A stretch of 62,502 bases of DNA, filler included. It is 3 parts of 3 records of this genome, joined end to end, with 100 filler letters (N's around TTAATTAATTAA, not from the genome) between each part and the next. Parts side by side here need not be neighbours in the genome. Positions count along the whole stretch, not along the records: positions 1 to 22,381 come from SRR20825019_379; 2 more parts are not named here. The stretch is one strand, 5' to 3'. A program made the translations under genes and the position numbers. The notes beneath the pieces were generated by a model. That model worked only from the letters and a program-made list of their open reading frames with translations, was not told the origin of the DNA and searched no databases. Below, one piece after another: positions 2,914-21,612 of the stretch. Each line of letters begins with the position of its first letter. Position 1 is the stretch's first letter.

Positions 2914-3033
2914 TAGCGGGGAATTCTAACCTAATCCTAAAACCAGACAAGCCACCGCTCAAAATGTTCGTGGTCAACCTTACATCCAAACGAACCCCTC
3001 GAAAATTCAATCGAGGATGAGGTTGAAGCGAAA

Positions 3034-4098: not shown

Positions 4099-4099
4099 C

Positions 4100-6435: not shown

Positions 6436-9258
6436 ATGATTTTTCTTGGTCGTCTTTTTTTTCTCGGTCTCGTGTGCGCCGTTGCCCTCAACGCCACGGT
6501 GCCTCTTCCCGAACTCCCACCCCGCGTCGTCGCGCCGACCGATAAGGCCGAATTCCGGCACCTCGTTCTCGAGAACGGTCTTCGCGTCATCCTCGTTTCA
6601 GATCCGAAGTTCAACAAATCCGCCGCCTCGCTCGTCGTGCCCACCGGACAGATCGACGATCCCTTCGACATGGTTGGGCTCGCCCACTTCACCGAACACA
6701 TGCTGTTTCTCGGCACGGAGAAATATCCCGATGTTGCCGGCTACAGCGCCTTCATTTCCAGCAACGGCGGTAGTCGCAACGCCTACACCGCGAGCGATCA
6801 CACCAACTACCAATTCGAAATTCGCCACGAAGCATTCCCTGAAGCACTCGATCGATTCGCGCAGTTTTTTATCGCTCCTCTCTTCAACGCCGATTTCACC
6901 GCGCGCGAGGTCAATGCCGTTAATAACGAGGCGATGCGTCACGTCCAAAACGACGGACGCCGCATTATGAATGTGCGCCGCGAGCTCTACGATCCCACTG
7001 CCGGCGAGAGTAAATTTTCAACTGGCAACAAAGAGACCCTCGCCCACGCCGACGCCGATGCCGTGCGCGCTTTTTACGAAGCTCACTACTCATCCGAACG
7101 CATGGCGCTGGCACTGACGGGAACCGCCTCGCTCAACGAGCTCGAAAAGCTCGCCCGAGACATTTTTTCCGCCATCCCCAGGCGCGATCTACCCACCGTC
7201 ACGCGCGAGCCGCTCTTTCTGCCCCGCAAGGAGACCCTCCGCATCGCCACGATCGAACCGGTTAAGGAACTTCGGAGTCTTGAACTCGAGTTTGTCGTGC
7301 CCCCGACCCGCCCTGATTTTACAAGCCGCTCCGACGCAATTCTGGTCGCGTTGATTAATTACGCGGGACCCGGCGGTCTCACCCAATACCTTAAGGATGA
7401 AGGTCTGGCGACCGGGGTGGACTCCGGTATCTGGGAACGCACCCCCGGCTACGGTTCATTTTTCCTCGAAGTCGATCTCACGGTTGAAGGTGAAAAAGAA
7501 ACCGACCGGATCATGGAAACCATTTTCGCCTACCTCCAGCACCTGCGCGACGCTCCCTTCCCTACCGCTTTTTTCGAAGATCAGGCGCGCATTGCCGCCC
7601 TCACCGAAACCTACACCGATCGTGGCGAAGGCACCGGTCTCGCCACCGCTCTCGCCAATCAGGCGCTCTTCTACCCTCTCGAAATCGCCGAACGCGCCCC
7701 CTATGTCTGGGGGCAACCCAATGAAGCCTTTTACCGCGAACTTCTCGACGTGCTGACGCCGGACAATCTCCTCGTCACGCTCGCCGCAAAAGGCGTGCCG
7801 ACCGATCGGCAGGAAAAAATCTACGGCACCCAATACGCTTACACCGAAACCAGCGGTGAAGCCTACGAAGCCCTCCTCCATCCCGCACCCATCGAAGAAT
7901 TTTCACTCCCCGGCATCAATCGTTTCATGCCGCGCGCCACCCCGATTCTCGCCGAGCGCCCTTTGCCATTGATCGACGAGCCCGGTTTAAAACTTTTCTA
8001 CGCGGCTGATGTTGAATTCCAACGCCCGCAAACCACGCTGATCTTTCGTTTCGTGCCCCAGCGCAGCATCGCCGGGATGGAAAGCGACCTCCTGCTGCAA
8101 TTTTATGAAGCCTGCTTGCTCGACGCCCTCGAACCCGCCGCCAACGACGCGGCTATCGCCGGCGTCCGGTTCGACCTCTCAGCCAGCCTCGAAGGGCTCA
8201 CCCTAATCGTTACCGGTTTCGGAGAATCACCGGCCAAGTTTGCCGAATATGTGGCCGACCAACTCCTCGATTTCGAAATTTCCAAACAACGCTTCGCCGC
8301 CCTGAAAGAGCGGGTTGTTCGCGGGCTCCGCAGCTACGAACAAACCGAAGCCTACCGGCTCGCCCGGGACCGCGCCAACGCAGTCGCCCGGGAGTTTCTC
8401 TATCTGCCAGACGAGCAACTCACCCGCGCGCCCACGGTCACCTTCGACGAGATCCGCGACTTCGCGGCAAACTTTTTCGCCACCGGCAAAATCGAATCCC
8501 TCATTCACGGTCACACCACGTCTGGGCAGGCGATCGAGATCACCCGTAATTTCGCAAACTACCTCAACGCACAATCGGCTGATGAAGAAACGCTCCTGCG
8601 CCGACACCATCTCGATCTCATCGCCGGATCTCCGGTCATCGATACCGGCAAAATCAAAGGTGCCAACTCAGCCTACTGGTCACTCCATCTGCTGCCCTCC
8701 GACTCACCACGCGATTGGGCGACCTCCGTCGTGCTCGGCAATTTTGTTTCCGAACCTTTCTACACCGAACTGCGCACCAAGCAGCAACTCGGCTATATCG
8801 TCGGTTCGGGCGGAGGCGTCTCCGGACAACAGCTTCAACAAATCTTCGTCATTCAATCGAGCACCCACGCCCCTGATGAACTCCGTGCAAAAGCCGAAGC
8901 CTTCATGCAAACCCTGCCGGGCACACTCGATGAGACATCCGACGAAGCCTTCGCTACCCTGATCGCCGGGGCGCGTTCGCAAATCGAAGAGAAGCCGAAA
9001 AGCATCGCCGAAAAAGCATCCAAGCTTTTCGCCAGTGCCTACGAATTCGGCGGGAATTGGGAACGCCGTGCCGAAATCCTCACGGCGCTTGACCATCTCA
9101 CCAAGGATGATGTTGCCCAGCTCCTCGCCAAGATCATCTCACCCGATTCATCCAAGCGGATCGTCGTGCTCCTCTCCGGCGAGCCACATGATGCCAGCCA
9201 AGCCGAACCCACGCTCACCGAACGAGAAATGTGGAAGTCTAAACAGACCTATCGTTGA
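6436..9258 (+). CDS. Secreted M16A metallopeptidase (insulinase/pitrilysin family)
   Basis: Signal peptide; inverted zinc motif HFTEH (GLAHFTEHMLFLGTEKYP), NAYT, and C-half LRTKQQLGYIV. Confidence 0.95.
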   Translation: MIFLGRLFFLGLVCAVALNATVPLPELPPRVVAPTDKAEFRHLVLENGLRVILVSDPKFNKSAASLVVPTGQIDDPFDMVGLAHFTEHMLFLGTEKYPDVAGYSAFISSNGGSRNAYTASDHTNYQFEIRHEAFPEALDRFAQFFIAPLFNADFTAREVNAVNNEAMRHVQNDGRRIMNVRRELYDPTAGESKFSTGNKETLAHADADAVRAFYEAHYSSERMALALTGTASLNELEKLARDIFSAIPRRDLPTVTREPLFLPRKETLRIATIEPVKELRSLELEFVVPPTRPDFTSRSDAILVALINYAGPGGLTQYLKDEGLATGVDSGIWERTPGYGSFFLEVDLTVEGEKETDRIMETIFAYLQHLRDAPFPTAFFEDQARIAALTETYTDRGEGTGLATALANQALFYPLEIAERAPYVWGQPNEAFYRELLDVLTPDNLLVTLAAKGVPTDRQEKIYGTQYAYTETSGEAYEALLHPAPIEEFSLPGINRFMPRATPILAERPLPLIDEPGLKLFYAADVEFQRPQTTLIFRFVPQRSIAGMESDLLLQFYEACLLDALEPAANDAAIAGVRFDLSASLEGLTLIVTGFGESPAKFAEYVADQLLDFEISKQRFAALKERVVRGLRSYEQTEAYRLARDRANAVAREFLYLPDEQLTRAPTVTFDEIRDFAANFFATGKIESLIHGHTTSGQAIEITRNFANYLNAQSADEETLLRRHHLDLIAGSPVIDTGKIKGANSAYWSLHLLPSDSPRDWATSVVLGNFVSEPFYTELRTKQQLGYIVGSGGGVSGQQLQQIFVIQSSTHAPDELRAKAEAFMQTLPGTLDETSDEAFATLIAGARSQIEEKPKSIAEKASKLFASAYEFGGNWERRAEILTALDHLTKDDVAQLLAKIISPDSSKRIVVLLSGEPHDASQAEPTLTEREMWKSKQTYR

Positions 9259-9312
9259 TCGGTTCTCGGCCAAGCTTTGCGCATTTTAAATAATCACAGA
9301 GCTATCCCGAAT

Positions 9313-9419
9313 TGTCATTCCGTGCCCCCAACGACGGGAAAAGAATCTAGTAGGATCCGCGTTAAAGGAAGAGCTTGACGAACAACTGCCTGGATCCTTC
9401 GCCATGGCTCAGGATGACA
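9313..9419. repeat. REP/RPE-like palindromic element
   Basis: Ends TGTCATTC...GGATGACA with internal GAATCT/GGATCC(TTCG) arms; lies between convergent genes. Confidence 0.6.
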
Positions 9420-9488
9420 GAGGTGTTTCGAGAACGAATCAGATCCGTGTAAACTTAAGGTGCTGTGGAGCAACTCAACACATCGCAA

Positions 9489-11432
9489 CTACTTAGCTTC
9501 CATCCCCAGCTCGCGTTTCACTGATTCAATGAGTATTGCGCGGGTCATCGGTTTAGCGAGCAAGCGCGCGCCGGACTCCGCCAATTTTTCCTTATCCTCA
9601 ACCACCGGACTGCCGGTGAGTGCGAGAATCGGCATGGTATGTCCTTTATTTCTGACCGTTTGAATCAACTCGCGGCCATCCATCCCCGACATCCGCAGGT
9701 CGGAAATCATCAAGTGTATCTCGGAACTACGCGTCTCCAATATCTCGAGCGCCGTCTCGCCGCTGTCTGCTGCGAACACGCGGTAACCTTCGGCTTTGAG
9801 CAGCAGCATAAGGGTAGTGCGCACCATTTCCTCATCGTCAACCAACAGAATACCCGAGGCAAACGGTGTGCCGGAAAGCCCGCTGCCAACCGTCGCACCA
9901 TTTACCGGCAGGTAGGCCCGAAAGGTCGTCCCTTCGTTGGGTTTGCTGTCGACCGTGATAAATCCACCGTGACCTTTGATAATCCCGCGCACGGTCGCCA
10001 AACCCAGGCCCGTGCCGCGAGTCGAATCCTTGGTCGTGAAGAACGGATCGAAGATTCGCTCAATCACTTGCGGTGAAATGCCTTCTCCTGTATCCGCAAC
10101 ACTCATCACCACATAGGAACCGGGAAACGCTTCCGGAAGAAGCTTTGCCGCATTTTCGTCAATCTCCACGAGATCCACGGTGATCGCAATCGCCCCTCCC
10201 TCGGGCATCGCATCACGTGCATTGATGCATAAATTCATCAGCACCTGCTTAATTTGAGTAGCGTCCACCCGCACTGGCGGAAGTGACTCGGTAAAGGATA
10301 TTGAAAGATCCACATCCCCCCGGAGGGTTTTGCCCATAAACTCGACAAACTCGGTGAGCAGCGAACGTAAATCGACCTCGACGTGTTCGCCTTCCGCACC
10401 ACGGGCAAACGCGAGCAGTTGCTTGACCAAGGCCGCCCCATTTTTAGCACTCCGGTGCATCGTGCCGATCAAATCGTTCAACTCGGATTGCTCCACATTG
10501 CTTTGCAAAATGTCCACCGACATCAGGATCGGCGCGAGCATGTTATTTAAATCATGAGCGATGCCGCCGACCATCATTCCCATGCTCTCCATCCGCTGGG
10601 ATTGCAAAAACTTGGACTCCAGCAAGCGGTTCTCGGTGACATCGGTATTGATCACCAAAAATGATTTGGGCCGGGCATTCGCATCCTCGACCAATGTCCA
10701 GCTGCTCTGCGTGACGACCTCACGGCCATCCTTCGTATGATGATGCAATTCGCCGCGCCATTCTCCATTCGCACACGTATGATCACGGGCAAATTGGCAT
10801 CGTGCGTAATCAGCCCCCAGCAACTCCATCACATCGCGCCCCATCGCTTCCTCACGGGACCACCCATATAGGCGTTGCGCACCGAGATTCCAATACGTGA
10901 TGCCACCATCCACCCGCTGCACGATGATCGCGTCCTGTGCATGATCGAGTAGGGTTGATTGTTCTTCGATTCGAGCTCGCGCCTCGCGCAACGCTTCCTC
11001 CGGATGCGACACCGCTTTGACATGGGACGCCTGTTGAATGGCCCGACGCACCGCAGAGCCCAAACGCCCGAGACGTTGCTTCACCACCAAATCGCTGGCC
11101 CCTTCTCTGAGCCATTCCACGGTGCGCTCCTCGCCAACCGGTTCGGTTAACACAATCGCCGGTTTTTCCGGACTTATCTTTCGCGCCAAACCCAACGCGC
11201 TCGTGCTCTCCAATTCGATCAATCCGTCGTCGATCAAAACCAAATCAAACTCCCGACGCGCTAGCGCCACGGAAAAATCCACCACCGTGGAAACCACCTG
11301 CACCAGGCAATCGGGCCATTCCCGACGCAAAATTTTCACGCCCCCCCCAGAAGCACTCAACGCCTTCTCCAGAAGAAGAAAGCGCAGTGGGGGTTGAGTT
11401 TGAGCGGTTTGTTGATCCCGCTTCTCTGTCAC
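9489..11432 (-). CDS. Cytoplasmic hybrid histidine kinase (REC-PAS-HisKA-HATPase-REC)
   Basis: PAS (DAIIV...ITYWNLGAQRLYGW), H-box GIAHDLNN, QVLMNLCINARDAM, DTGEGI, PFFTTK, GTGLGLA, C-terminal REC (LVDDE...ISDLRM...KP). No TM helix. A GTG start at 11432 is preferred over the track start 11534, which overlaps ycaO. Confidence 0.92.
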   Translation of the reverse strand: MTEKRDQQTAQTQPPLRFLLLEKALSASGGGVKILRREWPDCLVQVVSTVVDFSVALARREFDLVLIDDGLIELESTSALGLARKISPEKPAIVLTEPVGEERTVEWLREGASDLVVKQRLGRLGSAVRRAIQQASHVKAVSHPEEALREARARIEEQSTLLDHAQDAIIVQRVDGGITYWNLGAQRLYGWSREEAMGRDVMELLGADYARCQFARDHTCANGEWRGELHHHTKDGREVVTQSSWTLVEDANARPKSFLVINTDVTENRLLESKFLQSQRMESMGMMVGGIAHDLNNMLAPILMSVDILQSNVEQSELNDLIGTMHRSAKNGAALVKQLLAFARGAEGEHVEVDLRSLLTEFVEFMGKTLRGDVDLSISFTESLPPVRVDATQIKQVLMNLCINARDAMPEGGAIAITVDLVEIDENAAKLLPEAFPGSYVVMSVADTGEGISPQVIERIFDPFFTTKDSTRGTGLGLATVRGIIKGHGGFITVDSKPNEGTTFRAYLPVNGATVGSGLSGTPFASGILLVDDEEMVRTTLMLLLKAEGYRVFAADSGETALEILETRSSEIHLMISDLRMSGMDGRELIQTVRNKGHTMPILALTGSPVVEDKEKLAESGARLLAKPMTRAILIESVKRELGMEAK

Positions 11433-11443
11433 TGTTGAAGCCT

Positions 11444-12334
11444 CTACCAAAAGAAATACCTTTCGTCGTCTTCCATAAAACGGCGGGATGGCGGCTTGAG
11501 CACAAACCGCCACACTGTCGTGTAGTCGGACCACGGCCCTGTCAGCTCGCTATCGCTAACAACCTCGGGTTTTGGCGTTGGACCGGAACGGCATTTGCGC
11601 CCCAGTCTTTCGCGAAACATTTCATGCCCCTCTTCCGTGGCGAAGAACCAGGAACGCTTTTCCAGACGCTCCGTCAGCGGCTCGACTTCACCAACGCCCA
11701 TCGCGAGCAACCGCGTGCGCAACACCCACTCCTGTCGGGTGAGTTCGAGCATCGCTTTTTCACAAGCCCGGGTGAAGGACTCGGCGGCGGCATGGCCGTA
11801 AACGTGGAAACCCCATTCTGAACGGGCAAAGAGTAAAACCGCCACACCACCAAGGGGCGGTTCAAAAGCCAAGGCGCTAACCCCGGGCCACTCCGTATCA
11901 CGTAACTGGCCATCGAGTTCGCCTTCCCACCAATGCAGAAGACAAAATCGCTCCAGCGATTCAAGGACCGCCGAGCGGCGCGCGGGGCCCTTCGACAGCC
12001 CTGGAAAGGCGGCCATGCCATTTGATGTTTCATCAACATCAAAGCCAAATTCTTCACGACGATCCGAACGAACCGTCGCATGAAAGGCCCAACGCTCCAA
12101 GGCTTCGGACACCGCCATATGCCTCGCCACCATCGGTGAGTCATGTGCCCCCGTCCCATCCATATCACTGTAGAGTTTAGCCCGACCCCGTGGCACCAAC
12201 CCGGCCCGCAAACGGGCATTGGATTGGAATTGCCGACGACCAAACATCGGGAATTCCCCCGATTCAATATGCTCAATCGGCCCACCGTGTGAGGCCATCA
12301 CATTGCGATACCGAAATGAAGCTAGGCTAAACAT
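11444..12334 (-). CDS. Compact YcaO-like ATP-dependent peptide backbone-modifying enzyme
   Basis: YcaO motifs in order: GTG...ARHMAVSEALER, TSNGMAA...ARRSAVLESLER, GHAA...ACEKAMLELTRQ. Only 296 aa; no C-terminal PxP tail. Confidence 0.82.
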   Translation of the reverse strand: MFSLASFRYRNVMASHGGPIEHIESGEFPMFGRRQFQSNARLRAGLVPRGRAKLYSDMDGTGAHDSPMVARHMAVSEALERWAFHATVRSDRREEFGFDVDETSNGMAAFPGLSKGPARRSAVLESLERFCLLHWWEGELDGQLRDTEWPGVSALAFEPPLGGVAVLLFARSEWGFHVYGHAAAESFTRACEKAMLELTRQEWVLRTRLLAMGVGEVEPLTERLEKRSWFFATEEGHEMFRERLGRKCRSGPTPKPEVVSDSELTGPWSDYTTVWRFVLKPPSRRFMEDDERYFFW

Positions 12335-12346
12335 AAAGTGAGATGA

Positions 12347-12532
12347 TTAGTTGGAATCGGAAGGAGCACCACACGGAGCATTGCAGGGACCGATCGAAGT
12401 CAATGTGTTCTTGCTCAGTTCAGGAGATAATTCTTGAACGGAAAGATCCACTCGATCAGCGGCGCGGGCAAAGCCCACAGACAACAAAAGGCTGGCAACC
12501 AGCCCGAGCACGAGATGTTTAATATTTTTCAT
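12347..12532 (-). CDS. Small secreted peptide, putative RiPP/signal precursor
   Basis: 61 aa MKNIKHLVLGLVASLLLSVGFARA-ADRVDLSVQELSPELSKNTLTSIGPCNAPCGAPSDSN. Basic n-region, hydrophobic h-region, A-x-A site, Cys/Ser/Thr/Pro-rich C-terminus; stop 12 nt before ycaO. Confidence 0.75.
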   Translation of the reverse strand: MKNIKHLVLGLVASLLLSVGFARAADRVDLSVQELSPELSKNTLTSIGPCNAPCGAPSDSN

Positions 12533-12577
12533 AACACCACAATTTGAAGCGTATTCAGCCCTCATACCAAGTGAGCT

Positions 12578-12621
12578 GGGTAACGATTTTTACCCGACCA
12601 TACTGAAATTACAGTATGGTC
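12578..12621. promoter_or_regulatory. Two abutting inverted repeats in the divergent peptide/kinase promoter (putative operators)
   Basis: GGGTAA-CGATTT-TTACCC (12578-12595) and GACCATACTG-AAATTA-CAGTATGGTC (12596-12621). Confidence 0.6.
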
Positions 12622-12654
12622 TTTCAGGCACGATTTGATCTATGATCGACTGTT

Positions 12655-15600
12655 GTGTGTCTCACCCGTTTAGGTTTTTTGTTTATCACCTGGCCGCTTA
12701 TCATGTTCTCCGGAGCGGATGCGGCGGTGAATACTAACGCAAGTAACGACGGGCTACTGATTTCCATTATTGATTCCTCGGATATCGGGACCGATGCCGC
12801 CATCTGGTGCACTACCCAAGACGCCGATGGCACATTATTTTTCGGCGGAAACGAACTGCTCGTGAATAACGGGGAGTCTTGGACCTCTTATAAAATGGGC
12901 GACTCCTACGCCATTCGCTCGCTGGATTTCTCTGACGACGGACGTCTTTGGGCCGCAGCTTTCAACGAAATAGGTTGGTTCGCCAAAACGCCCGAAGGGG
13001 GTTGGATCTACCACTCCCTAAAACCAAAACTGCCCGAGGCCATCAAACAGCTGGGCGATGTCTGGAATGTTTATGCCCAAAACGGAGGTGTTATCTTTGT
13101 CACTAATGATCGGATCATTCGATGGGACGGTGAACACTTCACTTGGTGGAGTTACCATGTTTCTCGCAGATTAGTTTCCACCAGGAACCAAAATGTAGTC
13201 TATGTCTCCCACCCTCCCTCAGGGTTATTGAAGATGACGCCCGAGGGTCCTGAAGTAACCTATTCGTCCGCAATTACTGGTTCGTCGAAAGTTTTTTGGC
13301 TGGGTAACATCGGCCAAGAAAAAGCCATGGTCACGACCGCTGGCGTTGGCACAATCACAGATGGTCGTCTTCAATACGTGGACCCGGAACTTTCCACCTA
13401 TCTCGAATCTAATATTCTCACCTCGGTCCAAGCACTGGCAAATAAACATCTGGCTTTGGGCACTCTGCGGGGGGGGATTGTCATCGTGGGTCCCGACTTA
13501 CATCTGAAGCGGGTCATCGGAACTCAAAACAGCCTGCCTACAAGTGAGGTCTACAGCCTTTATCTCGCCAAAGATAATGAGCTATGGGGGACTTCCAGCA
13601 CCAATATATTCCGAATCGATGGCTTGGAAAGCACGGTGGTATTCAACAAAAATCAAGGCCTGCCCGAAACGGGTATTATCGATATCGTCATTCATGACCA
13701 GAAACCCATCGTGCTTACGGCCGATGGTGTTTATCAAACCGTAGATGCCACCGGTAAGTTCTCTCTGAGCAATGCCAGCTATGGTTCCTACCGTGATATC
13801 ATTTCTACTCCGACAGGGTTGTTGATCAGCGCAAGTTATGGGGTATACGGTTTGGGTGATAGCGACTCATCCACCTATTACCAAACTGCCAACGATGTCT
13901 CCAAAATCGGACCGAGCCCGAAGAAAGATCACTATTACGCAGTAGAAACTGGGCGGATCGTTGAATTTTCCATCAACGATAAATCCTCTCGGACTGTCAC
14001 CAACACACTCCCGGACAGCTCTGACAACATTGTGCTCGATACCCAAGGACGACTATGGATCAACACGGGCTCCAGTGGTCTCTACGTCATCGCTCCAGCC
14101 ATCGACCACCCGGTCGATCCGGTATCCGCCCACCTCCATCACGGCTTCCCCTATGCCAAAGGGTATCCAAAACTCGCGCAGCTCGCCGATACGATCATCG
14201 CTACTGGGCCGGAAGGGGCCTACTGGTTGAACTCCGAAACGGATCAATTTGAAAAAGTCGCAAACTACCCCAAGGGCGAAACCATCGCTTTTTCAAATAC
14301 CGACAAACAGGAACGTATCTGGGCTGCTTTAAAGGGCGTGCAGAATGGGATGCCCGCCCGCATAGGACAGCTCGAACGCAGCACTACAGGTGTAAGGTGG
14401 ATTCCCCGTTCCATCGATGGACTGGCTACGGTCGGCCACCTCCGCACTCTGCGAATCGAACAAACCAAGGACGACAACCGGCTTTGGATCGCCGGCAATA
14501 AAGGCCTGATGCGTATCACTAAGCCGGAAACCATGCAGGCGCGGCCACCCTCACAACCGCAGCTCAACGCAATCGTTCGCGATAATCAGGATGCCCCGGC
14601 TCTCCCCATCACTTCTGAACTTCCCTATAACACCAAACGCATCCATCTGGAATTCAGCACCACCGAATTCGGGCAACGCGATTCGCTGCGCTACCAAACG
14701 ATGCTGACGGGAGTCGATCCGGATTGGTCGGCCCCCACCAACACCCCTGAGCTCGAACTCGCCAATCTGCGGGAGGGAAACTACACCTTTAAAGTGCGCG
14801 TCATCGCCGACACCGGTTTGGTAAGTGTCCCCAACGAACTTCGCTTCTCGATTGCAGCACCTTGGTGGCGCACCCCTTATGCTTATAGCGGTTACGTCCT
14901 CTTTTTCGGAATTTCGCTGACCGGACTTTACCGGTTGCGGATCCGCTCAATCCGACGTCGATCCGAACTGCTCGAAGTAACCGTGCAACAACGCACCACT
15001 GAACTCGAGAAAGCCAATGCCGCCAAGACCGAGTTCGTCGCCAGCATGAGCCACGAAATTCGCAATCCGATGAACGGGATCATCGGTTCCGCGCATGCGC
15101 TCGATCAGACCAAACTCGACGAAGAGCAGCGTGAACTCGTTTCGACCCTCCGCAACTGCGCCTCGTTCCTCGGCTCCCTGGTTGAAGACGTGCTCGATTT
15201 CTCCTCGATTGAAGCCGGCGCTTTTACCGTCCAGCAACAACCCTGCTACCCGCGCACCATTCTGGAAAACGTTTCCAAAATGCTCGCCGGACAAGCCGTC
15301 GTCGCGGGGGCTCATTTCGAACTGGAAATCGATTCCACCCTCCCCACCCAGATTCTCGCGGATGCTTCACGTATCCAGCAAATCGTCGTCAATTATGCGA
15401 CCAACGCCCTCAAATTCAGCGGTGGTGGACGGGTGCGTCTCTCGGCTTACAACGATAATAACAACATCGCCTTTGCCGTCACCGATAATGGACCCGGCAT
15501 CAGCACCGATGAACAAGCCGTCCTCTTCACCCGCTTCTCACGCCTGAAAACCGCCCGTAAAGCAGGCATCGCCGGCACTGGTCTCGGCTTGGCGGTTTGT

Positions 15601-16497
15601 CGCGCACTCGCCGAAAACATGGGCGGCACCGTGGGAGTTGCCAGTGCTCCTCGCCGTGGTGCGACTTTCTTCCTGCGGATTCCCTTGCATAAAGTGCAAC
15701 CCAACCAACTCGCTCCGAAACCTGCCCTTCCCTCAATGGAAGGCGCCCGCGCTCTCATCGTTGAAGATATTGATTACAACGCCCGGGCTCTTTCCACGAT
15801 GCTGAAGCAGTTGGGCTTCTCTGTTGATCTCGCGCCCGACGGAGCCACCGCGCTGAAGCACCTCGCCTCACGCACTTATCATACCGTTTTTCTCGATTAC
15901 GATCTTCCCGATATGAGTGGACTCGACGTCGCCCGTCGGCTTCGCCTGCGGGAAGACGATGACCGACGTGCCCTCGTCATCGCCACCACCGCCTACTCGA
16001 CAGTGGAAGATCGGCGCGCCTGCTTGGATGCCGGCATGGACATCTTTCTCGGCAAACCGATCACTCCGGAGAAACTCCAATCCGTGCTCGCGGGCATGCC
16101 ACCGATTACCCTTCCATCAGCCTCGATTGATCTCCCGATCGATCCTCAGTCGGGAATCAACCTCCGGATGCTCAGCTATCTCGCCGATAATCAGCCCGAC
16201 GGTTTGAAGCGCGAAATCAAACGCTATCTCGATGCCCTCACCTCGACTCACGGTGAAGTCTTGGAAGCACTGCTCACACGCAATCGTCCCGCCCTGGGCA
16301 AAGCCGCTCATCGCATGCTTTCGCATGGTCGTATGGTTGAAGCCACAACCCTGATCACCATCGCCGAGGAAATCGAAGCCGAGGCCGACTACGCCGAAAT
16401 CCGGCGCCTCGAAGAACTGGGTGATGAACTCGCCACCGCCATCACCGAACTCAGGAAAACGCTGGTCCGCCATCACCAGGCGCAGACACCTGCGTGA
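12655..16497 (+). CDS. Membrane hybrid sensor kinase (periplasmic beta-propeller + Y_Y_Y, TM, HisKA, HATPase, REC, HPt)
   Basis: Propeller-type repeats (DGRLWAA, DTQGRLWI), Y_Y_Y (RYQTMLTGVDPDWS...LREGNYTFKVR), TM after PWWRT, H-box SMSHEIRNPMNG, NALKF, DNGPGI, GTGLGL, REC (VEDI...LDYDLPDMSG...KP), HPt AHRMLSHGRM. Exact start uncertain. Confidence 0.93.
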   Translation: MCLTRLGFLFITWPLIMFSGADAAVNTNASNDGLLISIIDSSDIGTDAAIWCTTQDADGTLFFGGNELLVNNGESWTSYKMGDSYAIRSLDFSDDGRLWAAAFNEIGWFAKTPEGGWIYHSLKPKLPEAIKQLGDVWNVYAQNGGVIFVTNDRIIRWDGEHFTWWSYHVSRRLVSTRNQNVVYVSHPPSGLLKMTPEGPEVTYSSAITGSSKVFWLGNIGQEKAMVTTAGVGTITDGRLQYVDPELSTYLESNILTSVQALANKHLALGTLRGGIVIVGPDLHLKRVIGTQNSLPTSEVYSLYLAKDNELWGTSSTNIFRIDGLESTVVFNKNQGLPETGIIDIVIHDQKPIVLTADGVYQTVDATGKFSLSNASYGSYRDIISTPTGLLISASYGVYGLGDSDSSTYYQTANDVSKIGPSPKKDHYYAVETGRIVEFSINDKSSRTVTNTLPDSSDNIVLDTQGRLWINTGSSGLYVIAPAIDHPVDPVSAHLHHGFPYAKGYPKLAQLADTIIATGPEGAYWLNSETDQFEKVANYPKGETIAFSNTDKQERIWAALKGVQNGMPARIGQLERSTTGVRWIPRSIDGLATVGHLRTLRIEQTKDDNRLWIAGNKGLMRITKPETMQARPPSQPQLNAIVRDNQDAPALPITSELPYNTKRIHLEFSTTEFGQRDSLRYQTMLTGVDPDWSAPTNTPELELANLREGNYTFKVRVIADTGLVSVPNELRFSIAAPWWRTPYAYSGYVLFFGISLTGLYRLRIRSIRRRSELLEVTVQQRTTELEKANAAKTEFVASMSHEIRNPMNGIIGSAHALDQTKLDEEQRELVSTLRNCASFLGSLVEDVLDFSSIEAGAFTVQQQPCYPRTILENVSKMLAGQAVVAGAHFELEIDSTLPTQILADASRIQQIVVNYATNALKFSGGGRVRLSAYNDNNNIAFAVTDNGPGISTDEQAVLFTRFSRLKTARKAGIAGTGLGLAVCRALAENMGGTVGVASAPRRGATFFLRIPLHKVQPNQLAPKPALPSMEGARALIVEDIDYNARALSTMLKQLGFSVDLAPDGATALKHLASRTYHTVFLDYDLPDMSGLDVARRLRLREDDDRRALVIATTAYSTVEDRRACLDAGMDIFLGKPITPEKLQSVLAGMPPITLPSASIDLPIDPQSGINLRMLSYLADNQPDGLKREIKRYLDALTSTHGEVLEALLTRNRPALGKAAHRMLSHGRMVEATTLITIAEEIEAEADYAEIRRLEELGDELATAITELRKTLVRHHQAQTPA

Positions 16498-17113
16498 AAC
16501 CCTGATCGATTGCGAAACGAATCAACTTCGGGGTGCTGTGCACCCCGAGCTTGTTCATGATCCGGCTCCGGAAAGTCGCCGCCGTCTTGTCCGTAATCGA
16601 CAGCTTCTTCGCAATCTCATCATCGGACAACGATTGTCCGATCAAGGCCAACACCACGCGCTCACGCTCCGTTAGCACTTTATCAAACGAATGCGGGTTC
16701 GCCGTGCGCTTGGCCTTCGCTTCTTCGTAGGAAGCCGCGAGATAACGCTTACCCGCCGCCACGGTTTCAATCGCTTCCCTTAAGCTTTCCAGGCTGTTGG
16801 CATTCTTATCCACGAATCCCTGAATTCCGGCGCGCTCCACACGATACAGGGTGTAGTCGCCACGCGCCGAGGTGATCGCGATGATCGGGAGCTTCGGCAA
16901 AACCTTGCGCACCGTTTCAACGATCGTGAAACCGTCCATATCCGGCAGGTGCAAATCCAAGAGCAATAAATCCGGCTGCTCGGCCATAATCACCCGCAGC
17001 GCTTCAGCACCATCACCCGCTTGTCCGACCACATCATAGCCGAAGTCGCTCACGCACACTTTGTGTATGACCTCCCGAAACATCTGATGGTCTTCCACGA
17101 TCACGATGCGCAT
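16451..17113 (-). CDS. NarL/LuxR-family response regulator
   Basis: Start MRIVIVEDH (ATG 17113), LLLDLHLPDMDG, HTH LTERERVVLALIGQSLSDDEIAKKLSI...IMNKLGV; overlaps the kinase 3' end by 47 nt. Confidence 0.95.
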   Translation of the reverse strand: MRIVIVEDHQMFREVIHKVCVSDFGYDVVGQAGDGAEALRVIMAEQPDLLLLDLHLPDMDGFTIVETVRKVLPKLPIIAITSARGDYTLYRVERAGIQGFVDKNANSLESLREAIETVAAGKRYLAASYEEAKAKRTANPHSFDKVLTERERVVLALIGQSLSDDEIAKKLSITDKTAATFRSRIMNKLGVHSTPKLIRFAIDQGFTQVSAPGDGGPAFS

Positions 17114-17220
17114 GCGGAATTCATTGGCGAAACTCACCGATTTAACAATCGGCAAATGAGTCATCTCCTGCCAGTTGCCTGCAAATCCGACCGGTCACTG
17201 CCTCTAAATCGCTCAACGTC

Positions 17221-17234
17221 TTGATCTTCATCAA
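17221..17234. promoter_or_regulatory. FNR/DNR box
   Basis: TTGAT-CTTC-ATCAA, a perfect TTGAT-N4-ATCAA site 35 nt upstream of the YwiC-like gene. Confidence 0.8.
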
Positions 17235-17269
17235 AGCGGATTGAGATCAACCAAACTAGAATTCGTCGC

Positions 17270-18073
17270 ATGAATCCGGCACTCCGTCTCTCTCCAACGT
17301 CCTTTGGGCGCAGCTCCCAGAATCGCACCCGTTCTCAGCGTAAGGTATTTTTACCGAAAGAACACGGTTCATGGTCACTCGCTCTCGAGCCAATTTTTTT
17401 TGGATTATTGATTGTTCCGAGTCATGCCGGAGTCGCTTTAGGTCTGAGTGCCGCGGCGGCGTTCTTGATTCGCCGACCGATGAAAGCCGTGCTCAAGACG
17501 ACTGATCACGCTTCCCTTATCGCGCTGGGCCTACTTTCCTCGGCAGCCTTATTAGGGATTTTCCAAGTCGTGATGCTAAGCGGAGTCGCGCCATTCTGGC
17601 CGCTCCTTCCCGCCATCCCGATGGGTGCGCTCTATTTGTATTGGGATCGCGAAAACGAAAGTCGTGCCGCTTCCGCCGAGCTCATCGGCAGTGGCTTGTT
17701 TGCGCTCATCCCTGCGGTCATGGCCACCCTTGCCGGACACAACGCGATTTTTGCGCTAAGCCTGACTTTTATCATGCTCGCGCGCAGCATCCCCACCGTC
17801 TTAACCGTGCGCTCGTGGTTGCGGCAACGAAAGGGCGAATCGTCCAGCTACCTTCCCGCGGTGGCGACCACAGCCCTCGCCGTGGCCATCATAACCTACC
17901 TCACCCGCGAAGGCCACACGCCTGTCGTCGCCCATGCACTCGTCCTCTTTTCCTCCCTTCGCCTCGCGTTGCTTTTCACGCGCACGCCCCATTGGTCGGC
18001 TAAACAAATCGGCATCAGCGAAGCAGTCTTTGGACTACTTTATGTTCTCCTCATCGCATTCGGATACCGCTAA
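17270..18073 (+). CDS. YwiC-like membrane protein
   Basis: Multi-TM protein with N-terminal PKEHGSW (YwiC-like PxxHGxW) and C-terminal AKQIGISE. Confidence 0.75.
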   Translation: MNPALRLSPTSFGRSSQNRTRSQRKVFLPKEHGSWSLALEPIFFGLLIVPSHAGVALGLSAAAAFLIRRPMKAVLKTTDHASLIALGLLSSAALLGIFQVVMLSGVAPFWPLLPAIPMGALYLYWDRENESRAASAELIGSGLFALIPAVMATLAGHNAIFALSLTFIMLARSIPTVLTVRSWLRQRKGESSSYLPAVATTALAVAIITYLTREGHTPVVAHALVLFSSLRLALLFTRTPHWSAKQIGISEAVFGLLYVLLIAFGYR

Positions 18074-18090
18074 AATCTCTTCCGTAAACC

Positions 18091-18104
18091 TTGATGTGTA
18101 TCAA
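18091..18104. promoter_or_regulatory. FNR/DNR box upstream of nirK
   Basis: ccTTGAT-GTGT-ATCAAgg, a perfect consensus with extended dyad. Confidence 0.85.
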
Positions 18105-18161
18105 GGCGCCACCCTACCCCCTGCGCTAAACTACTCCCTGTCATTCAACCCAGTGTTTCCT

Positions 18162-19682
18162 ATGAAAACGCCACAATCCAAAATTATCCCCTCGCTCATC
18201 ACCGCCACGCTTTTAAGCGTCTTCGCTTCAGCCCTCCACGCCGTGGAAGGTGCCGGCGTCAGTGCCGAAGGTCTCGTGGAGCTTCCACCCGAAATCAAAG
18301 CGTTGCCCATCGAGGAAGCCATCCTCACCTCACCGCCGCACGTGCCCCCTCCAATCACTCGTGATCACGCGGCCCGGGTCGTCGTTCATCTCGAAGTGCG
18401 GGAAGTGGAATCCCGCATGTCCGATGGCGTGACTTACACCTTCTGGACCTTCGGTGGCACCGTTCCCGGCTCCTTCATCCGGATTCGCGAAGGCGATGTG
18501 GTTGAGTTTCACCTCAACAATCACCCCTCCTCCAAGCTGCCGCATAACATCGATTTGCACGCTGTCACCGGTTCGGGTGGTGGCGCCACCTCGTCCTTTA
18601 CGGCTCCGGGCCATAGCTCGCAGTTCACGTTCACCGCCCTGAATCCCGGCCTGTTTGTCTATCACTGTGCCACTGCTCCCGTGCCCATGCACGTCGGCAA
18701 CGGCATGTATGGTCTCATCCTGGTTGAGCCCAAGGAAGGCCTGCCACCCGTCGATCGCGAATACTACGTGATGCAGGGTGATTTCTATACTCAAGGCAAC
18801 TACGGCGAGTCCGGATTGCAGACCTTTGATATGGCCAAATCCATCGATGAACGTCCCACCTACATCGTCTTCAACGGTTCGGTCGGTTCCATGGTCGGCG
18901 ACAACGCCATCAAGGCCAACGTCGGCGAAACCGTGCGTCTCTATCTCGGCGTTGGCGGTCCTAACCTCACGTCCTCATTTCATGTGATCGGCGAGATCTT
19001 TGATACCGTTTATCCGGAAGCGAGTCTCTCCCATCCCACGCAGAATGTGCAAACCACCCTGGTGCCTCCCGGTGGGGCTACGGTGGTCGATTTCAAAGTC
19101 GAAGTGCCGGGCACCTTCATCCTCGTGGATCACGCACTGTCCCGGGCCTTTAATAAAGGCGCCCTCGGGATGCTGAAAGTTGAAGGCGAAGCCGATCGGG
19201 TCATCTATTCCGGCAAGGAAATCGATGCGGTCTATCTCGGCGCTCAAGCCGAAGCCGGCACCGAGGCTCAGAAACGCGAAGTCGAATTGAAGAAGAAAAT
19301 CGCCACGGAAATCAAAAACAATCCCGCCATCGCCAGCCTGACCAAGGAAGTGCAGTTTGAACGCGGCAAGCAGGTCTACATGCAGCTCTGCTTCGCCTGC
19401 CACATGCCCGACGGCAAGGGATTGCCCAAGGTGTTTCCGGGGCTCGCCCAGTCTGACTACCTGCTGGAAGACAAGGATCGGGCGATCCGCGTCGTCACCA
19501 AGGGCCTCACCGGTCCGATCACGGTGAATGGAGAAACCTTCAACAGTGCCATGCCTGCTCAACCGCAACTCTCCGACGAGCAAGTCGCCGATGTCGTTAC
19601 TTACATTCTCAATGAATGGGGCAACGATGGCGGCAGCGTCACCGTCGATGACGTCCGCCGCGTGAAGAGCGAAAGCAACTAG
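18162..19682 (+). CDS. nirK: Copper-containing nitrite reductase with C-terminal cytochrome c fusion
   Basis: Signal peptide from MKTPQSK; Cu ligands PHNIDLHAV, YHCATAPVPMHVGNGM, SFHVIGE, LVDHAL; C-terminal heme motif CFACH with distal MPA. Confidence 0.95.
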   Translation: MKTPQSKIIPSLITATLLSVFASALHAVEGAGVSAEGLVELPPEIKALPIEEAILTSPPHVPPPITRDHAARVVVHLEVREVESRMSDGVTYTFWTFGGTVPGSFIRIREGDVVEFHLNNHPSSKLPHNIDLHAVTGSGGGATSSFTAPGHSSQFTFTALNPGLFVYHCATAPVPMHVGNGMYGLILVEPKEGLPPVDREYYVMQGDFYTQGNYGESGLQTFDMAKSIDERPTYIVFNGSVGSMVGDNAIKANVGETVRLYLGVGGPNLTSSFHVIGEIFDTVYPEASLSHPTQNVQTTLVPPGGATVVDFKVEVPGTFILVDHALSRAFNKGALGMLKVEGEADRVIYSGKEIDAVYLGAQAEAGTEAQKREVELKKKIATEIKNNPAIASLTKEVQFERGKQVYMQLCFACHMPDGKGLPKVFPGLAQSDYLLEDKDRAIRVVTKGLTGPITVNGETFNSAMPAQPQLSDEQVADVVTYILNEWGNDGGSVTVDDVRRVKSESN

Positions 19683-19711
19683 TCGTTACACCGAAAACCA
19701 GAAACTGCCTC

Positions 19712-20527
19712 ATGTCTCTCTCCGTCCAATTTCCCCGTCGCTTGCGGCGCTCGGCCCTCTGCGGAGTGGCTGCGCTGAGCTTGATCGGCAGCGGGATCTT
19801 GCGCGCAGCACCGGAGGGCATGACGGCGGTTCCCGCCGGGGACTATGCTCCCCTTTTTACCGGTCCGGATGACCCCGCCACGCTTCCCGTGGCGGCATTC
19901 TTTATCGAGACTCTGCCTGTTACCAATGGCGAATTTCTCGCCTTCGTGCAGGCCAATCCCAAATGGCGGCGCTCTCAGGTGAGTCCGCTTTTCGCTGATG
20001 AGACCTATCTCGCTCACTGGTCCGGCGAACTTCAACTCGGGCCACGCGCGCCCGCCGATTCTCCCGTGATCAACGTTTCCTGGTTCGCCGCCCGCGCTTA
20101 CGCCCGGTCAATCGGCAAACGCTTGCCGACCACGGCGGAATGGGAACGTGTCGCCGCCGTCGGTTATACGCATCCCGACGGGAAAAACGACCCTGAACTC
20201 AGCGGTGATATCTACCGCTGGTTTGCCCGGCCCACTCCCGATATCCTTCCGCCCGCCACGAACGCTCGTGCCAACCTCCTCGGTGTGCGCGGTCTCTTCG
20301 GCTACGTCTGGGAATGGGTTTCCGATTTTAATACCGCCATGGTCACCGGCGAATCACGCGGTGACAGTAGTCTCGACCGCAATCTGTTTTGCTCCGCCGG
20401 TTCCGTCGGCGCCAAGGATACCAGCGACTATGCCGCCTTTATGCGCATGGCTCTGCGCAGCTCCCTCCGCGCCAGCAACAGCACCAGCTCCCTCGGCTTC
20501 CGCTGTGCCCGCGACCTCAATCCCTAA
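19712..20527 (+). CDS. Formylglycine-generating-enzyme-like protein (NirV-like)
   Basis: PVTNGEF, PVINVSWFAARAY, RLPTTAEWE, VWEWV, LGFRC; directly after nirK. Confidence 0.88.
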   Translation: MSLSVQFPRRLRRSALCGVAALSLIGSGILRAAPEGMTAVPAGDYAPLFTGPDDPATLPVAAFFIETLPVTNGEFLAFVQANPKWRRSQVSPLFADETYLAHWSGELQLGPRAPADSPVINVSWFAARAYARSIGKRLPTTAEWERVAAVGYTHPDGKNDPELSGDIYRWFARPTPDILPPATNARANLLGVRGLFGYVWEWVSDFNTAMVTGESRGDSSLDRNLFCSAGSVGAKDTSDYAAFMRMALRSSLRASNSTSSLGFRCARDLNP

Positions 20528-20553
20528 CCATCATGCATCCCACCACTCAATCT

Positions 20554-20667
20554 TGTCATTGCGAAGGAGTCCCGCCTCGGGGGACGACTGCGGCAATCCA
20601 CGATTACTCTGCATTTCCCACTGTCACCCTGTGGATTTGCCGCGTCGCTCCGATCCTCGCAATGACA
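20554..20667. repeat. RPE/REP-like nested palindromic element
   Basis: Perfect 11-bp terminal IR TGTCATTGCGA...TCGCAATGACA and inner arms GCGGCAATCCAC...GTGGATTTGCCGC. Confidence 0.75.
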
Positions 20668-20681
20668 CCCAAATTTCCGTC

Positions 20682-21293
20682 ATGAAAATAAAACCCCTCC
20701 TCACTTTCACCACGAGCCTCCTGGCTGCTACGATCGCCCTGACCGCGGTCGCTGGTGAAGAGCTCGATGCTTGCTGCCAAGTTGAAGTCGAGAACGCACC
20801 GTTTTCCCGGCACTCGCTTTATCAACTCGAAGCGAGCTACACCGACACCAACGGACGCGAGATCAACCTCGCAGCGTTTCGGGGACGTCCGGTCGTCCTC
20901 ACCATGTTCTTCGCTTCGTGCGGTTACGCCTGCCCGCTCCTCGTCAGTGATGTGACGCAAATCCGCGAGTTACTCCCCGCTGAAATCCGCGATCAGGCCG
21001 CCCTCGTGCTCGTTACCTTCGATCTTGAGCGCGACACTCCCGAAGCGTTGAAAAAATATAAAACCGAGCGCCTTCTCGACGATCAATGGACGCTCCTCCA
21101 CGGCAACGACGATGCCGTGAGCGAACTCGCCGCCCTCCTCGGCGTGAAATACAAATTGGAAAACAACGGGATGTTTTCCCACTCCAACCTGATCACGATT
21201 CTCAACGCCGAAGGTGAAATCGTGCATCAACGAGAAGGGCTCAAGGGAGGACTTGAGGAAACCGCCCGCGCCATCGTCGCCGCCACGAATTAA
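20682..21293 (+). CDS. SCO/SenC-family copper chaperone
   Basis: Start MKIKPLL; FFASCGYACP (CxxxC), D.ERDTPE.L, conserved His in FSHSN. Confidence 0.92.
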   Translation: MKIKPLLTFTTSLLAATIALTAVAGEELDACCQVEVENAPFSRHSLYQLEASYTDTNGREINLAAFRGRPVVLTMFFASCGYACPLLVSDVTQIRELLPAEIRDQAALVLVTFDLERDTPEALKKYKTERLLDDQWTLLHGNDDAVSELAALLGVKYKLENNGMFSHSNLITILNAEGEIVHQREGLKGGLEETARAIVAATN

Positions 21294-21303
21294 TAATAGA
21301 CTA

Positions 21304-21534
21304 ATGCCCTCGCCAAAATCCTTCACTCTCGATGTCCGTCCCCTCATCGCTCAAGGCGAGGATCCCTTCTCCACCATCCGGACAAAAGTAGATAGCCTTG
21401 CCTCTGAAGAATCGCTCGAAGTCATCGCTCCTTTCCTCCCCGCTCCCTTAATCGAACTCCTCAAGGCCGAAGGCTTCACGGTCACGATAGAACATCACTC
21501 CGATTCATCGTGGTCCGCTCATTTTCGACGCTGA
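21304..21534 (+). CDS. DUF2249-like small protein
   Basis: LDVRPLIAQGEDPFSTI...LEVIAPFLPAPLIELL...GF pattern. Confidence 0.7.
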   Translation: MPSPKSFTLDVRPLIAQGEDPFSTIRTKVDSLASEESLEVIAPFLPAPLIELLKAEGFTVTIEHHSDSSWSAHFRR

Positions 21535-21612
21535 CTGTTCAATCCTATACCTTAGGGGATTAGGGCTAGTGAACAGCTTGCGCATAATGGCGCGGTCTTG
21601 TTGCCTTTCGAA

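Follow-up and report, generated by a model that had tools for sequence, protein, structure and literature searches.

The window, by which we mean the whole stretch of DNA that was analysed, is 62,502 nucleotides (nt) long, filler included, and consists of three parts joined end to end. In the first of these lies a group of five genes (Table 1) that looks like an undescribed module of the kind that produces peptides made on the ribosome and modified after translation (RiPPs). On the minus strand, the gene for a small putative precursor peptide is followed by that for a stand-alone YcaO-like enzyme of 296 residues, referred to here as the mini-YcaO, and then by one for a cytoplasmic hybrid histidine kinase. 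A 1280-residue hybrid sensor kinase is encoded divergently, and its gene runs toward that of a NarL/LuxR-family response regulator. We present evidence that the first two genes are probably a genuine precursor and YcaO pair under the control of the adjacent two-component system, and we then consider, with more reserve, whether the modified peptide is itself what the sensor kinase detects.

Table 1. Coordinates of the module in the window
Feature	Position	Strand	Remarks
Precursor peptide gene	12347..12532	-	61 aa from conserved ATG at 12532; mechanical open reading frame reaches 12565
Stand-alone minimal YcaO-like enzyme gene	11444..12334	-	296 aa; 12 nt past the peptide frame; TAG stop
Cytoplasmic hybrid histidine kinase gene	9489..11432	-	likely GTG start at 11432; mechanical open reading frame (681 aa) 9489-11534
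Hybrid sensor kinase gene	12655..16497	+	1280 aa; divergent from the peptide operon
NarL/LuxR-family response regulator gene	16451..17113	-	REC and GerE helix-turn-helix; mechanical open reading frame to 17164
Palindrome, candidate operator	12596..12621	none	26 bp; core 12601-12616; in the divergent promoter region of about 120 bp

An earlier note on this DNA, made from the sequence alone, had described a tight operon with gaps of 12 and 11 nt and a divergent large kinase gene converging on the regulator gene. The open reading frames (ORFs), the gaps and the coordinates are as it claimed. The GTG at which the cytoplasmic kinase probably begins is 11 nt beyond the YcaO stop codon, with AGAGG just upstream, and the 3' ends of the large kinase and regulator ORFs overlap by 47 nt. 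The regulator start was placed at M18 because its homologues align from residue 18. Pfam models for Reg_prop, Y_Y_Y, HisKA, HATPase_c and REC match the 1280-residue kinase, and two hydrophobic segments read from its sequence, one at the N-terminus and one near residue 740, bracket about 700 residues that would be periplasmic. The beta-propeller/Y_Y_Y hybrid kinase of the earlier note is thus recovered, while the HPt domain that it had added is represented by a weak match (E 0.019), under the Pfam cut-off. The 681-residue ORF has PAS, HisKA, HATPase_c and REC matches plus a second REC-like stretch, and the regulator has REC and GerE. A scan of the genes between 436 and 30270 detected neither an ABC exporter nor any E1/ThiF, TfuA or nitroreductase domain, in agreement with the earlier statement that exporter, E1/ThiF partner, flavin dehydrogenase and TfuA are lacking, and the window genes scanned also contained no MNIO (DUF692) or DUF2063 protein. 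The arrangement recurs in relatives down to 30-35% identity and is therefore far beyond chance.

The peptide of the window begins with MKNIKH, followed by a hydrophobic run of 16 residues, ARA-AD and a conserved RVD motif; its variable tail ends in P-C-x-x-P-C (P-C-N-A-P-C). No Pfam or NCBIfam family matches it. Of 80 metagenome loci, 12 were too short to judge; among the 68 with 230 nt or more of upstream DNA, 66 have a homologous small ORF on the same strand, separated from the YcaO start by 0-82 nt. It is also present in the four close loci, in most of fourteen distant loci and in 10-12 of 17 further species-level loci. A stricter peptide caller, which missed some peptides found previously (those of L046, L061 and L062, for example), recovered it in 79 of 103 loci as 71 unique sequences. 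A profile of 17 peptides, drawn from the same loci as those tested, has exactly one match in each of five genomes, directly upstream of the YcaO gene. Applied to 301 genomes of the class, it gives 13 matches in 12 genomes, all of them YcaO-positive and all beside the YcaO gene, and 0 matches in the 287 YcaO-negative genomes. The two of the 14 YcaO-positive genomes that were not matched are G059, with a divergent repeat precursor at locus L027, and G212 (L033, 154 nt upstream). Because the profile was built from these same loci, its matches arise partly by construction, and what is informative is the lack of matches elsewhere. The pairing of peptide and YcaO is strict and the peptide is found only beside the YcaO gene, which bears out the expectation of the earlier note that a signal-peptide-like ORF would be linked to the YcaO homologues.

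Two regions of the peptide behave very differently. The N-terminal 30 residues are conserved and follow approximately M-[KN]-x3-R-x3-G-x2-S-S-L-L-L-x2-G-F-x-R-A-A-[DE]-R-L-D-P. Among the 71 unique peptides, 62 have an n-region net charge of at least +1, the hydrophobic run has a median length of 16 residues (exactly 16 in 42), and a small-x-small motif occurs near the end of this run in 57. By these rules the N-terminus resembles a Sec signal peptide that would be cleaved at an A-x-A site. The leader is unusually strongly conserved, so that this region may also act as a recognition leader. The tail, by contrast, is hypervariable. It contains Cys in 66 of the 71 peptides and C-x(1,2)-P-C in 37 of the 71, often followed by acidic and Pro residues. 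In L027 (four repeats), L061, L121 and L125 the core is repeated in tandem behind a single leader, an arrangement that is a hallmark of multi-core RiPP precursors. A related feature was seen upstream of the YcaO gene of L122 (about 7900-8100), where four tandem 24-nt repeats would, if coding, read A-F-C-D-T-V-C-N-F four times. They follow no recognisable hydrophobic leader, and they may represent either a multi-core precursor with another start or non-coding repeats.

The enzyme was assigned to the YcaO superfamily by its fold, because its score against the PF02624 hidden Markov model, 24.4 bits over profile positions 112-192 only, is below the gathering cut-off of 25.7; the model search proposed in the earlier note therefore falls short, and TIGR03604 likewise gives 24.6 against a cut-off of 219. 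Some mini-YcaO homologues do carry a precomputed PF02624 match, as do 47% of the members in the nearest Atlas clusters. When the single protein was compared with PDB sequences by phmmer there was no match at E <= 10. A profile of the family finds only TruD, MusD and the Methanopyrus kandleri YcaO (Mk-YcaO), weakly (E 0.2-1.3), and at these weak E-values it aligns the E-x-x-E-R helix (E125-R129) and the helix of E197 with helices of the same three proteins. Structure prediction, which the earlier note had also proposed, yields a whole-length YcaO fold. An AlphaFold2 model, computed from an alignment of 104 sequences whose members are 30-57% identical to the window protein, has a mean predicted local distance difference test (pLDDT) of 96.8 and a predicted template modelling score (pTM) of 0.92. 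The best 41 matches of this model in a Foldseek search of the PDB are all YcaO structures, with E-values of 5e-7 to 3e-4. With VIA-align the Z-scores are 16.9 for McbD (root-mean-square deviation 4.0, 261 residues), 16.2 for LynD, 16.0 for Mk-YcaO, 15.0 for MusD and 12.3 for the E. coli YcaO, and the next unrelated fold scores 5.7. Considering McbD, LynD, MusD and the archaeal YcaOs together, Z lies between 14 and 17 with 243-269 residues aligned, and the alignments to YcaO structures cover model residues 1-296. Thus the YcaO-like call of the earlier note stands on the fold and not on the domain score, and the model shows a YcaO domain that is compact yet complete, with about 100 fewer residues than McbD (296 versus 396).

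The conserved residues of the family point to an active site. Among the 104 sequences E77 is conserved in 101, E80 in 103, R81 in 100, E125 in 100, E128 in 103, R129 in 103, E197 in 101 and R200 in 100; S76 is near-invariant too, and so are E225, R227, D261 and R276, with counts of 97-104. S76 and the eight residues with individual counts are located on three long helices of the model (67-88, 116-136 and 187-213). In McbD the ATP coordination sphere is formed by three long alpha helices and a Mg-coordinating Glu is essential (PMC6395948, available text), and all YcaOs are said to have three ATP-binding motifs in common (PMC8120280, available text). An ATP-ligand role for the conserved acidic and basic residues of the mini-YcaO is suggested by the alignment and by this account of McbD. 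The C-terminus is also constrained: it ends in YFFW at a fixed position in the window protein and in 16 of 18 aligned relatives, and F294 is present in 102 of the 104 sequences. A modelled complex of the mini-YcaO with the 61-residue peptide, ATP and Mg scored 0.25, against a mark of 0.34.

The module is common in Verrucomicrobiota. A word-indexed search returned 677 relatives of the mini-YcaO, most of them 291-297 residues long among the 120 listed, and the named relatives among the matches listed are Opitutaceae, Cephaloticoccus and metagenome-assembled genomes (MAGs) of Verrucomicrobia. An exhaustive profile search, with clusters counted at 50% identity, gives the family, whose typical length is about 295 residues, a size of 734 clusters for E <= 0.001 and of 314 for E <= 1e-30. 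Genome samples with one genome per species, centred on the relative G001, contain members in 14 of 301 genomes for the class and in 31 of 401 for the phylum, and more than one copy per genome is rare. Cephaloticoccus and Opitutaceae MAGs, at 80-90% identity, are the named records that come nearest, which fits the proposal of the earlier note that the host probably belongs to the Opitutaceae. In the Atlas, the nearest clusters carry the YcaO label and have Verrucomicrobiota as their commonest group. For another, related cluster with this label, made up of 339-residue proteins, the commonest group is Pseudomonadota, and the family may therefore reach beyond Verrucomicrobiota.

The neighbouring two-component system generally accompanies the peptide and enzyme. 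In the species-level set of 32 loci from 31 genomes, a kinase related to the 1280-residue protein is adjacent and divergent in 31 loci, the exception being L033, which lies on a 4.8-kb contig. The NarL/LuxR-type regulator is likewise present in 31, with L125 as the exception, and the periplasmic sensor part is recognisably similar in 24. The co-occurrence of a Y_Y_Y kinase and a LuxR gene with the pair, anticipated in the earlier note, was therefore observed for each of the two genes. Metagenome loci, which include near-duplicates so that their counts are not independent, give a similar picture: where 1500 nt or more of upstream DNA is available (47 loci), the sensor kinase gene lies there in divergent orientation in 41, and where 5500 nt or more is available (26 loci), 23 have the kinase as well as the regulator. 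The exceptions, L048, L057, L058, L060, L078 and L090, represent about four distinct sequences and make up a subclade in which peptide and YcaO genes occur with no adjacent kinase. The tails encoded at these loci carry Q-C-V-P-C or V-C-C-P-C, or, in L090, the related Q-C-I-P-T. Because these six metagenome loci keep the pair beside unrelated genes, we conclude that peptide and YcaO are the core unit and that the two-component system is its usual but non-obligatory neighbour. The cytoplasmic kinase was counted as a part of the system in the earlier note. It does belong to the tight operon of the window, but among the 37 metagenome loci whose sequence continues for 2500 nt or more on that side, only 16 have a full-length relative downstream of the YcaO gene, and it is thus a variable, facultative member of the operon.

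A palindrome with 12-nt arms, one mismatch and a 2-nt centre is situated between the peptide and sensor kinase genes, and related palindromes with a consensus near CTACCGGAATTCCGGTAG are found at the same place in relatives. When the window and the loci, a total of 842,448 nt, were scanned with the 16-mer TACYGGAATTCCRGTA, allowing at most 2 mismatches, 46 matches were obtained. Thirty-nine of these lie at -330 to -230 from the YcaO start, upstream of the peptide gene, and they represent 39 of the 83 eligible loci. Four more, in L048, L052, L066 and L090, lie further upstream of the YcaO gene. L057, L058 and L060, where no two-component system adjoins, still have the palindrome. Its structure, two half-sites of 7 nt separated by a 2-nt spacer, resembles that of sites bound by the NarL family. 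The palindrome is a candidate operator that the adjacent regulator most likely binds. A second palindrome-like site at 26285-26300 (TACCGGTCTTTCGGTA, 2 mismatches), apparently inside a coding frame and upstream of an EamA transporter gene, was set aside because the window holds 6 such matches in all, a number that chance can produce (mean 1.84, maximum 7). In a scan of 9200-17400 for consensus promoters and terminators, sites were no commoner than in shuffled sequence.

The way in which the parts of the module diverge is of interest for the question of what the kinase senses. Between the window and its closest relative, L001, the YcaO and the regulator are each 90% identical and the peptide leader 97%. 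For the sensor kinase the figures are 86% in the cytoplasmic part, 87% in the Hpt region and 59% in the periplasmic sensor, and the peptide core is 55% identical. Comparison with L002 gives 83% for the YcaO, 77% for the regulator and 68% for the cytoplasmic part of the kinase, with 42% for the sensor and 23% for the core; the same ordering is seen in more distant loci. Rapid divergence of core and sensor, as seen in these identities, is what co-diversification of a ligand and its receptor would give.

Other genes adjoin the module with less regularity. The ORFs of 79 loci, each 6 kb or longer after smaller loci had been left out, were clustered all against all, and few other neighbours recur: additional kinases, a TonB-dependent receptor in 6 loci, an M3 peptidase in 5 and an M16 peptidase in 4. 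The TonB-dependent receptor, of about 920 residues, adjoins the YcaO or regulator genes in L028, L029, L031 and three further loci; in this clade, the most distant one, the peptides terminate in P-T-C-[LV]-P. The adjacency suggests outer-membrane uptake of the product or of its metal complex. In the window itself, a 940-residue ORF (6436-9258) with a hydrophobic N-terminus converges on the operon and is found beside the module in close relatives only. We take it for a putative M16 peptidase, and it could process the exported peptide; as a dedicated leader protease it was dropped, with recurrence in just 4 of the 79 loci. Immediately past the regulator gene, positions 17270-22320 hold a denitrification and copper cluster with genes for a YwiC-like membrane protein, a copper nitrite reductase-cytochrome c fusion (582 residues), an FGE-sulfatase/NirV-like protein, the copper chaperone SCO1/SenC and a Crp/Fnr-type regulator. 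YwiC and NirK genes adjoin the module in the close relatives L001, L003 and L004 and not in distant loci. Farther away, at 436-4651, is a cell-surface-signalling set, whose members are an STN-domain TonB-dependent receptor, a FecR-like anti-sigma factor and an extracytoplasmic function (ECF) sigma factor.

These results can be assembled into a model. A precursor of about 60 residues, with a conserved leader resembling a Sec signal and a fast-evolving tail rich in Cys, Pro and acidic residues, would be modified in the cytoplasm by the co-transcribed mini-YcaO. YcaO enzymes activate backbone amides with ATP, and the most likely product would be a thiazoline at C-x-x-P-C (P-C-N-A-P-C in the window), which, with no dehydrogenase, would undergo no later oxidation. 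Sec would carry the modified peptide into the periplasm, where it would act on the kinase's Reg_prop/Y_Y_Y domain, either as its ligand or as a modulator. The kinase phosphorelay would then activate the regulator, which would most likely bind the palindrome and control both divergent units from their shared promoter region of about 120 bp, closing an autocrine or cell-to-cell feedback loop. Catalysis, its chemistry, export, regulator binding and sensing are all inferred here, and we place the complete chain, from YcaO modification through Sec export and sensing to the regulator on the palindrome, at somewhat less than an even chance. That the modified peptide is a pheromone is plausible by analogy. 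The chemistry may differ between subfamilies, or may be other than azoline formation; it may also be thioamidation, in spite of the lack of a TfuA (PF07812) match in five of five relatives' genomes, which are MAGs and may be incomplete (the control, Methanosarcina acetivorans, was matched), because the E. coli YcaO works without TfuA (PMC13063428, available text).

A number of observations weigh against this model and must be set beside it. On the side of the enzyme, the PF02624 score is below its cut-off, PF02624 matched in none of five relatives' genomes at E <= 0.001, and the mini-YcaO has neither the terminal Pro nor the proline-rich tail of azoline-forming YcaOs; the C-terminal Pro396 of McbD inserts into its own active site (PMC6395948, available text). 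Neither an E1-like or RiPP recognition element (RRE) leader-binding partner nor an FMN dehydrogenase was seen in the window locus and its neighbours or among the recurrent families of the 79 loci, a survey of neighbourhoods that did not extend to the rest of the genomes. As to the peptide, its signal sequence was judged by simple rules and not by a dedicated predictor, the tail has no Cys in 5 of the 71 unique peptides, and the repeated cores of L027 and L121 contain no Cys, Ser or Thr, so that formation of azolines or thiazolines is not universal. A peptide of about 35 residues in the periplasm of a diderm also has no obvious exit from the cell. Regarding control and sensing, the palindrome was not found in 44 of the 83 eligible loci, which may use a different site, the six metagenome loci described above have the pair with no adjacent kinase, and periplasmic sensor domains often outpace kinase cores in any case.

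The coverage of the window by sequencing runs belongs to the same balance. Run X1 contains the stretch in full and may be where the window comes from. Contigs of run X3 have a depth of 32 over 11041-12334, which includes the YcaO gene, and of 47 over 12305-12514 in the peptide gene; over the genes for the long kinase and regulator there are fragments of depth 2-4 only. The library type of this run is unrecorded, contig depth is a poor measure of expression and the uncovered parts are no evidence of silence. The loose ends of the X3 contigs resemble a template-switching oligonucleotide, which would mean that the library was cDNA. The depths are thus a weak hint that the YcaO and peptide genes are expressed. 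One 240-nt contig of this run folds back at 12305-12334, at the YcaO start, and another contig ends at 12334, probably an assembly artefact. The RNA runs X7 and X8 each contribute 1-2 short contigs with 11-16 differences from the window, and because of these differences we regard them as derived from relatives and uninformative for the organism of the window.

Of the alternatives, the one that competes most seriously, although we hold it to be distinctly less probable than the complete chain, is a periplasmic metal- or redox-buffering RiPP similar to the bufferins. In this reading the YcaO would form heterocycles or thioamides in the C-x-x-P-C tail that bind a metal, for example copper, in the periplasm, and the two-component system would sense metal or envelope stress rather than the peptide and do no more than turn on the operon. 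Bufferins are Gram-negative RiPPs with a Sec signal whose modified Cys residues chelate periplasmic copper and which have no dedicated exporter (PMC11626156, available text), and this precedent counts against the signalling model. The Sec-like leader and the lack of an exporter here, the frequency of Cys and of C-x(1,2)-P-C in the tails, the TonB-dependent receptor adjoining in 6 of 79 loci and the copper nitrite reductase, NirV and SCO1 cluster next door in the window and its close relatives all agree with the buffering reading. A conserved metal site would not, however, be expected to lie in a core that is hypervariable and sometimes free of Cys, nor is it obvious why the kinase sensor should diverge as fast as that core; the nirK adjacency is confined to close relatives, and no MNIO or DUF2063 gene was found among the genes scanned.

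Two further possibilities seem improbable to a similar degree. One is that the product is an antimicrobial, a bacteriocin-like RiPP regulated by its own two-component system as in lantibiotic clusters that include a kinase and a regulator. Antibiotics are frequent among YcaO RiPPs, and the hypervariable core, the multi-core precursors and the dedicated regulator would suit such a role. Among the neighbours in the 79 loci, however, there is no recurrent immunity gene, ABC or PCAT exporter or leader protease, and Sec would put the toxin in the periplasm of its own producer. The other is that the mini-YcaO modifies a protein and that the small ORF is an unrelated secreted or membrane-bound modulator of the kinase, in the way that MgrB acts on PhoQ. 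The N-terminus of the peptide, with its median hydrophobic run of 16 residues, could indeed anchor in the membrane, no RRE or E1 partner is present, TfuA was not found in five of five genomes, and the E. coli YcaO thioamidates the ribosomal protein uL16 with no TfuA (PMC13063428, available text). The strict one-to-one adjacency of peptide and YcaO genes (0-82 nt) argues against this, as does the occurrence of the peptide family nowhere else; moreover, the pairs persist where the two-component system is not adjacent, and repeated cores suit a substrate better than a regulator. Finally, that the mini-YcaO is degenerate and serves as a non-catalytic scaffold or chaperone for the peptide is very improbable, since the sub-threshold model score, the approximately 100 residues missing relative to McbD and the missing proline tail are offset by Glu and Arg residues on all three helices that are near-invariant in 104 sequences and by the fixed C-terminal position, which together imply selection on an active site.

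In full-text searches we found no published description of the family or of the architecture, although the supplements of YcaO genome-mining studies such as PMC4603692 and PMC8120280 may list the genes. The literature found on YcaO enzymes and signalling or on Verrucomicrobiota consists of genome-mining surveys and of papers on unrelated clusters (including PMC10352776, as far as its available text goes). As an enzyme the mini-YcaO adds a new, minimal form to a superfamily already known, and it is the constant coupling of YcaO and precursor to a hybrid kinase with a periplasmic sensor, to a NarL-type regulator and to a common operator that we did not find in print. If the enzyme is active, it is the smallest known YcaO architecture, with 296 residues, no leader-binding partner and an aromatic C-terminal tail. 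The module, widespread in a poorly studied phylum, would in that case also define a new RiPP class whose precursors travel on the general Sec pathway, a route known so far mainly from bufferins (PMC11626156, available text). If in addition the peptide is read by the kinase, it would offer an entry to peptide communication in Verrucomicrobia and more broadly in Gram-negatives, and would be the first non-glycan ligand class for Reg_prop/Y_Y_Y sensors. The textbook Gram-negative signals are acyl-homoserine lactones. The boldest version of the idea, in which this is the first YcaO-dependent peptide-signalling system and a pheromone circuit native to diderms, with core and sensor specificity groups like those of staphylococcal agr and with TonB receptors possibly importing the signal in some lineages, is in our estimation rather unlikely.

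It is useful to compare the module with systems that are better known. The RiPP cyclodehydratases McbD, LynD/TruD and MusD share with the mini-YcaO the same whole-protein fold (Z 15-17, 257-269 residues aligned), the E-x-x-E-R helices and an adjacent gene for a small Cys-bearing precursor. Unlike them, the mini-YcaO has no E1-like or RRE partner or fused domain and no dehydrogenase, its C-terminus is YFFW instead of a proline tail, and its precursor carries a Sec-like signal in place of a classical leader. The thioamide-forming YcaOs, namely the archaeal McrA-modifying enzymes (PDB 6ci7/6cib and 6peu, Z 16.0 and 14.5) and the E. coli YcaO, have a comparable fold and are stand-alone, as is the mini-YcaO, the E. 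coli enzyme working without TfuA (PMC13063428, available text). They act, however, on large proteins and have no adjacent small precursor, and no sulfur-carrier gene was seen in the mini-YcaO locus. The bufferins (PMC11626156, available text) resemble the module in having no dedicated exporter and in their Gram-negative hosts, and their Sec-type signal and Cys residues modified before export may have counterparts in the Sec-like leader and Cys-bearing tail of the module. Their enzyme, however, is an MNIO (DUF692) with a DUF2063 partner, whereas that of the module is a YcaO, and their precursors are conserved small folded proteins, whereas the core of the module is hypervariable.

The agrBDCA and comQXPA systems of Gram-positive peptide quorum sensing follow the same logic, with precursor, modifying enzyme, sensor kinase and regulator encoded in one locus, and they too combine a hypervariable peptide core and sensor with conservation of the rest. 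The enzymes are unrelated, and in the module export would proceed by Sec into the periplasm, where the putative receptor is a beta-propeller/Y_Y_Y hybrid kinase with a phosphorelay. The same Reg_prop/Y_Y_Y periplasmic architecture is found in hybrid two-component sensors of the Bacteroidetes type. These sense glycans and have a fused AraC output, whereas the kinase of the module carries REC and a weak Hpt match and is paired with a separate NarL/LuxR regulator.

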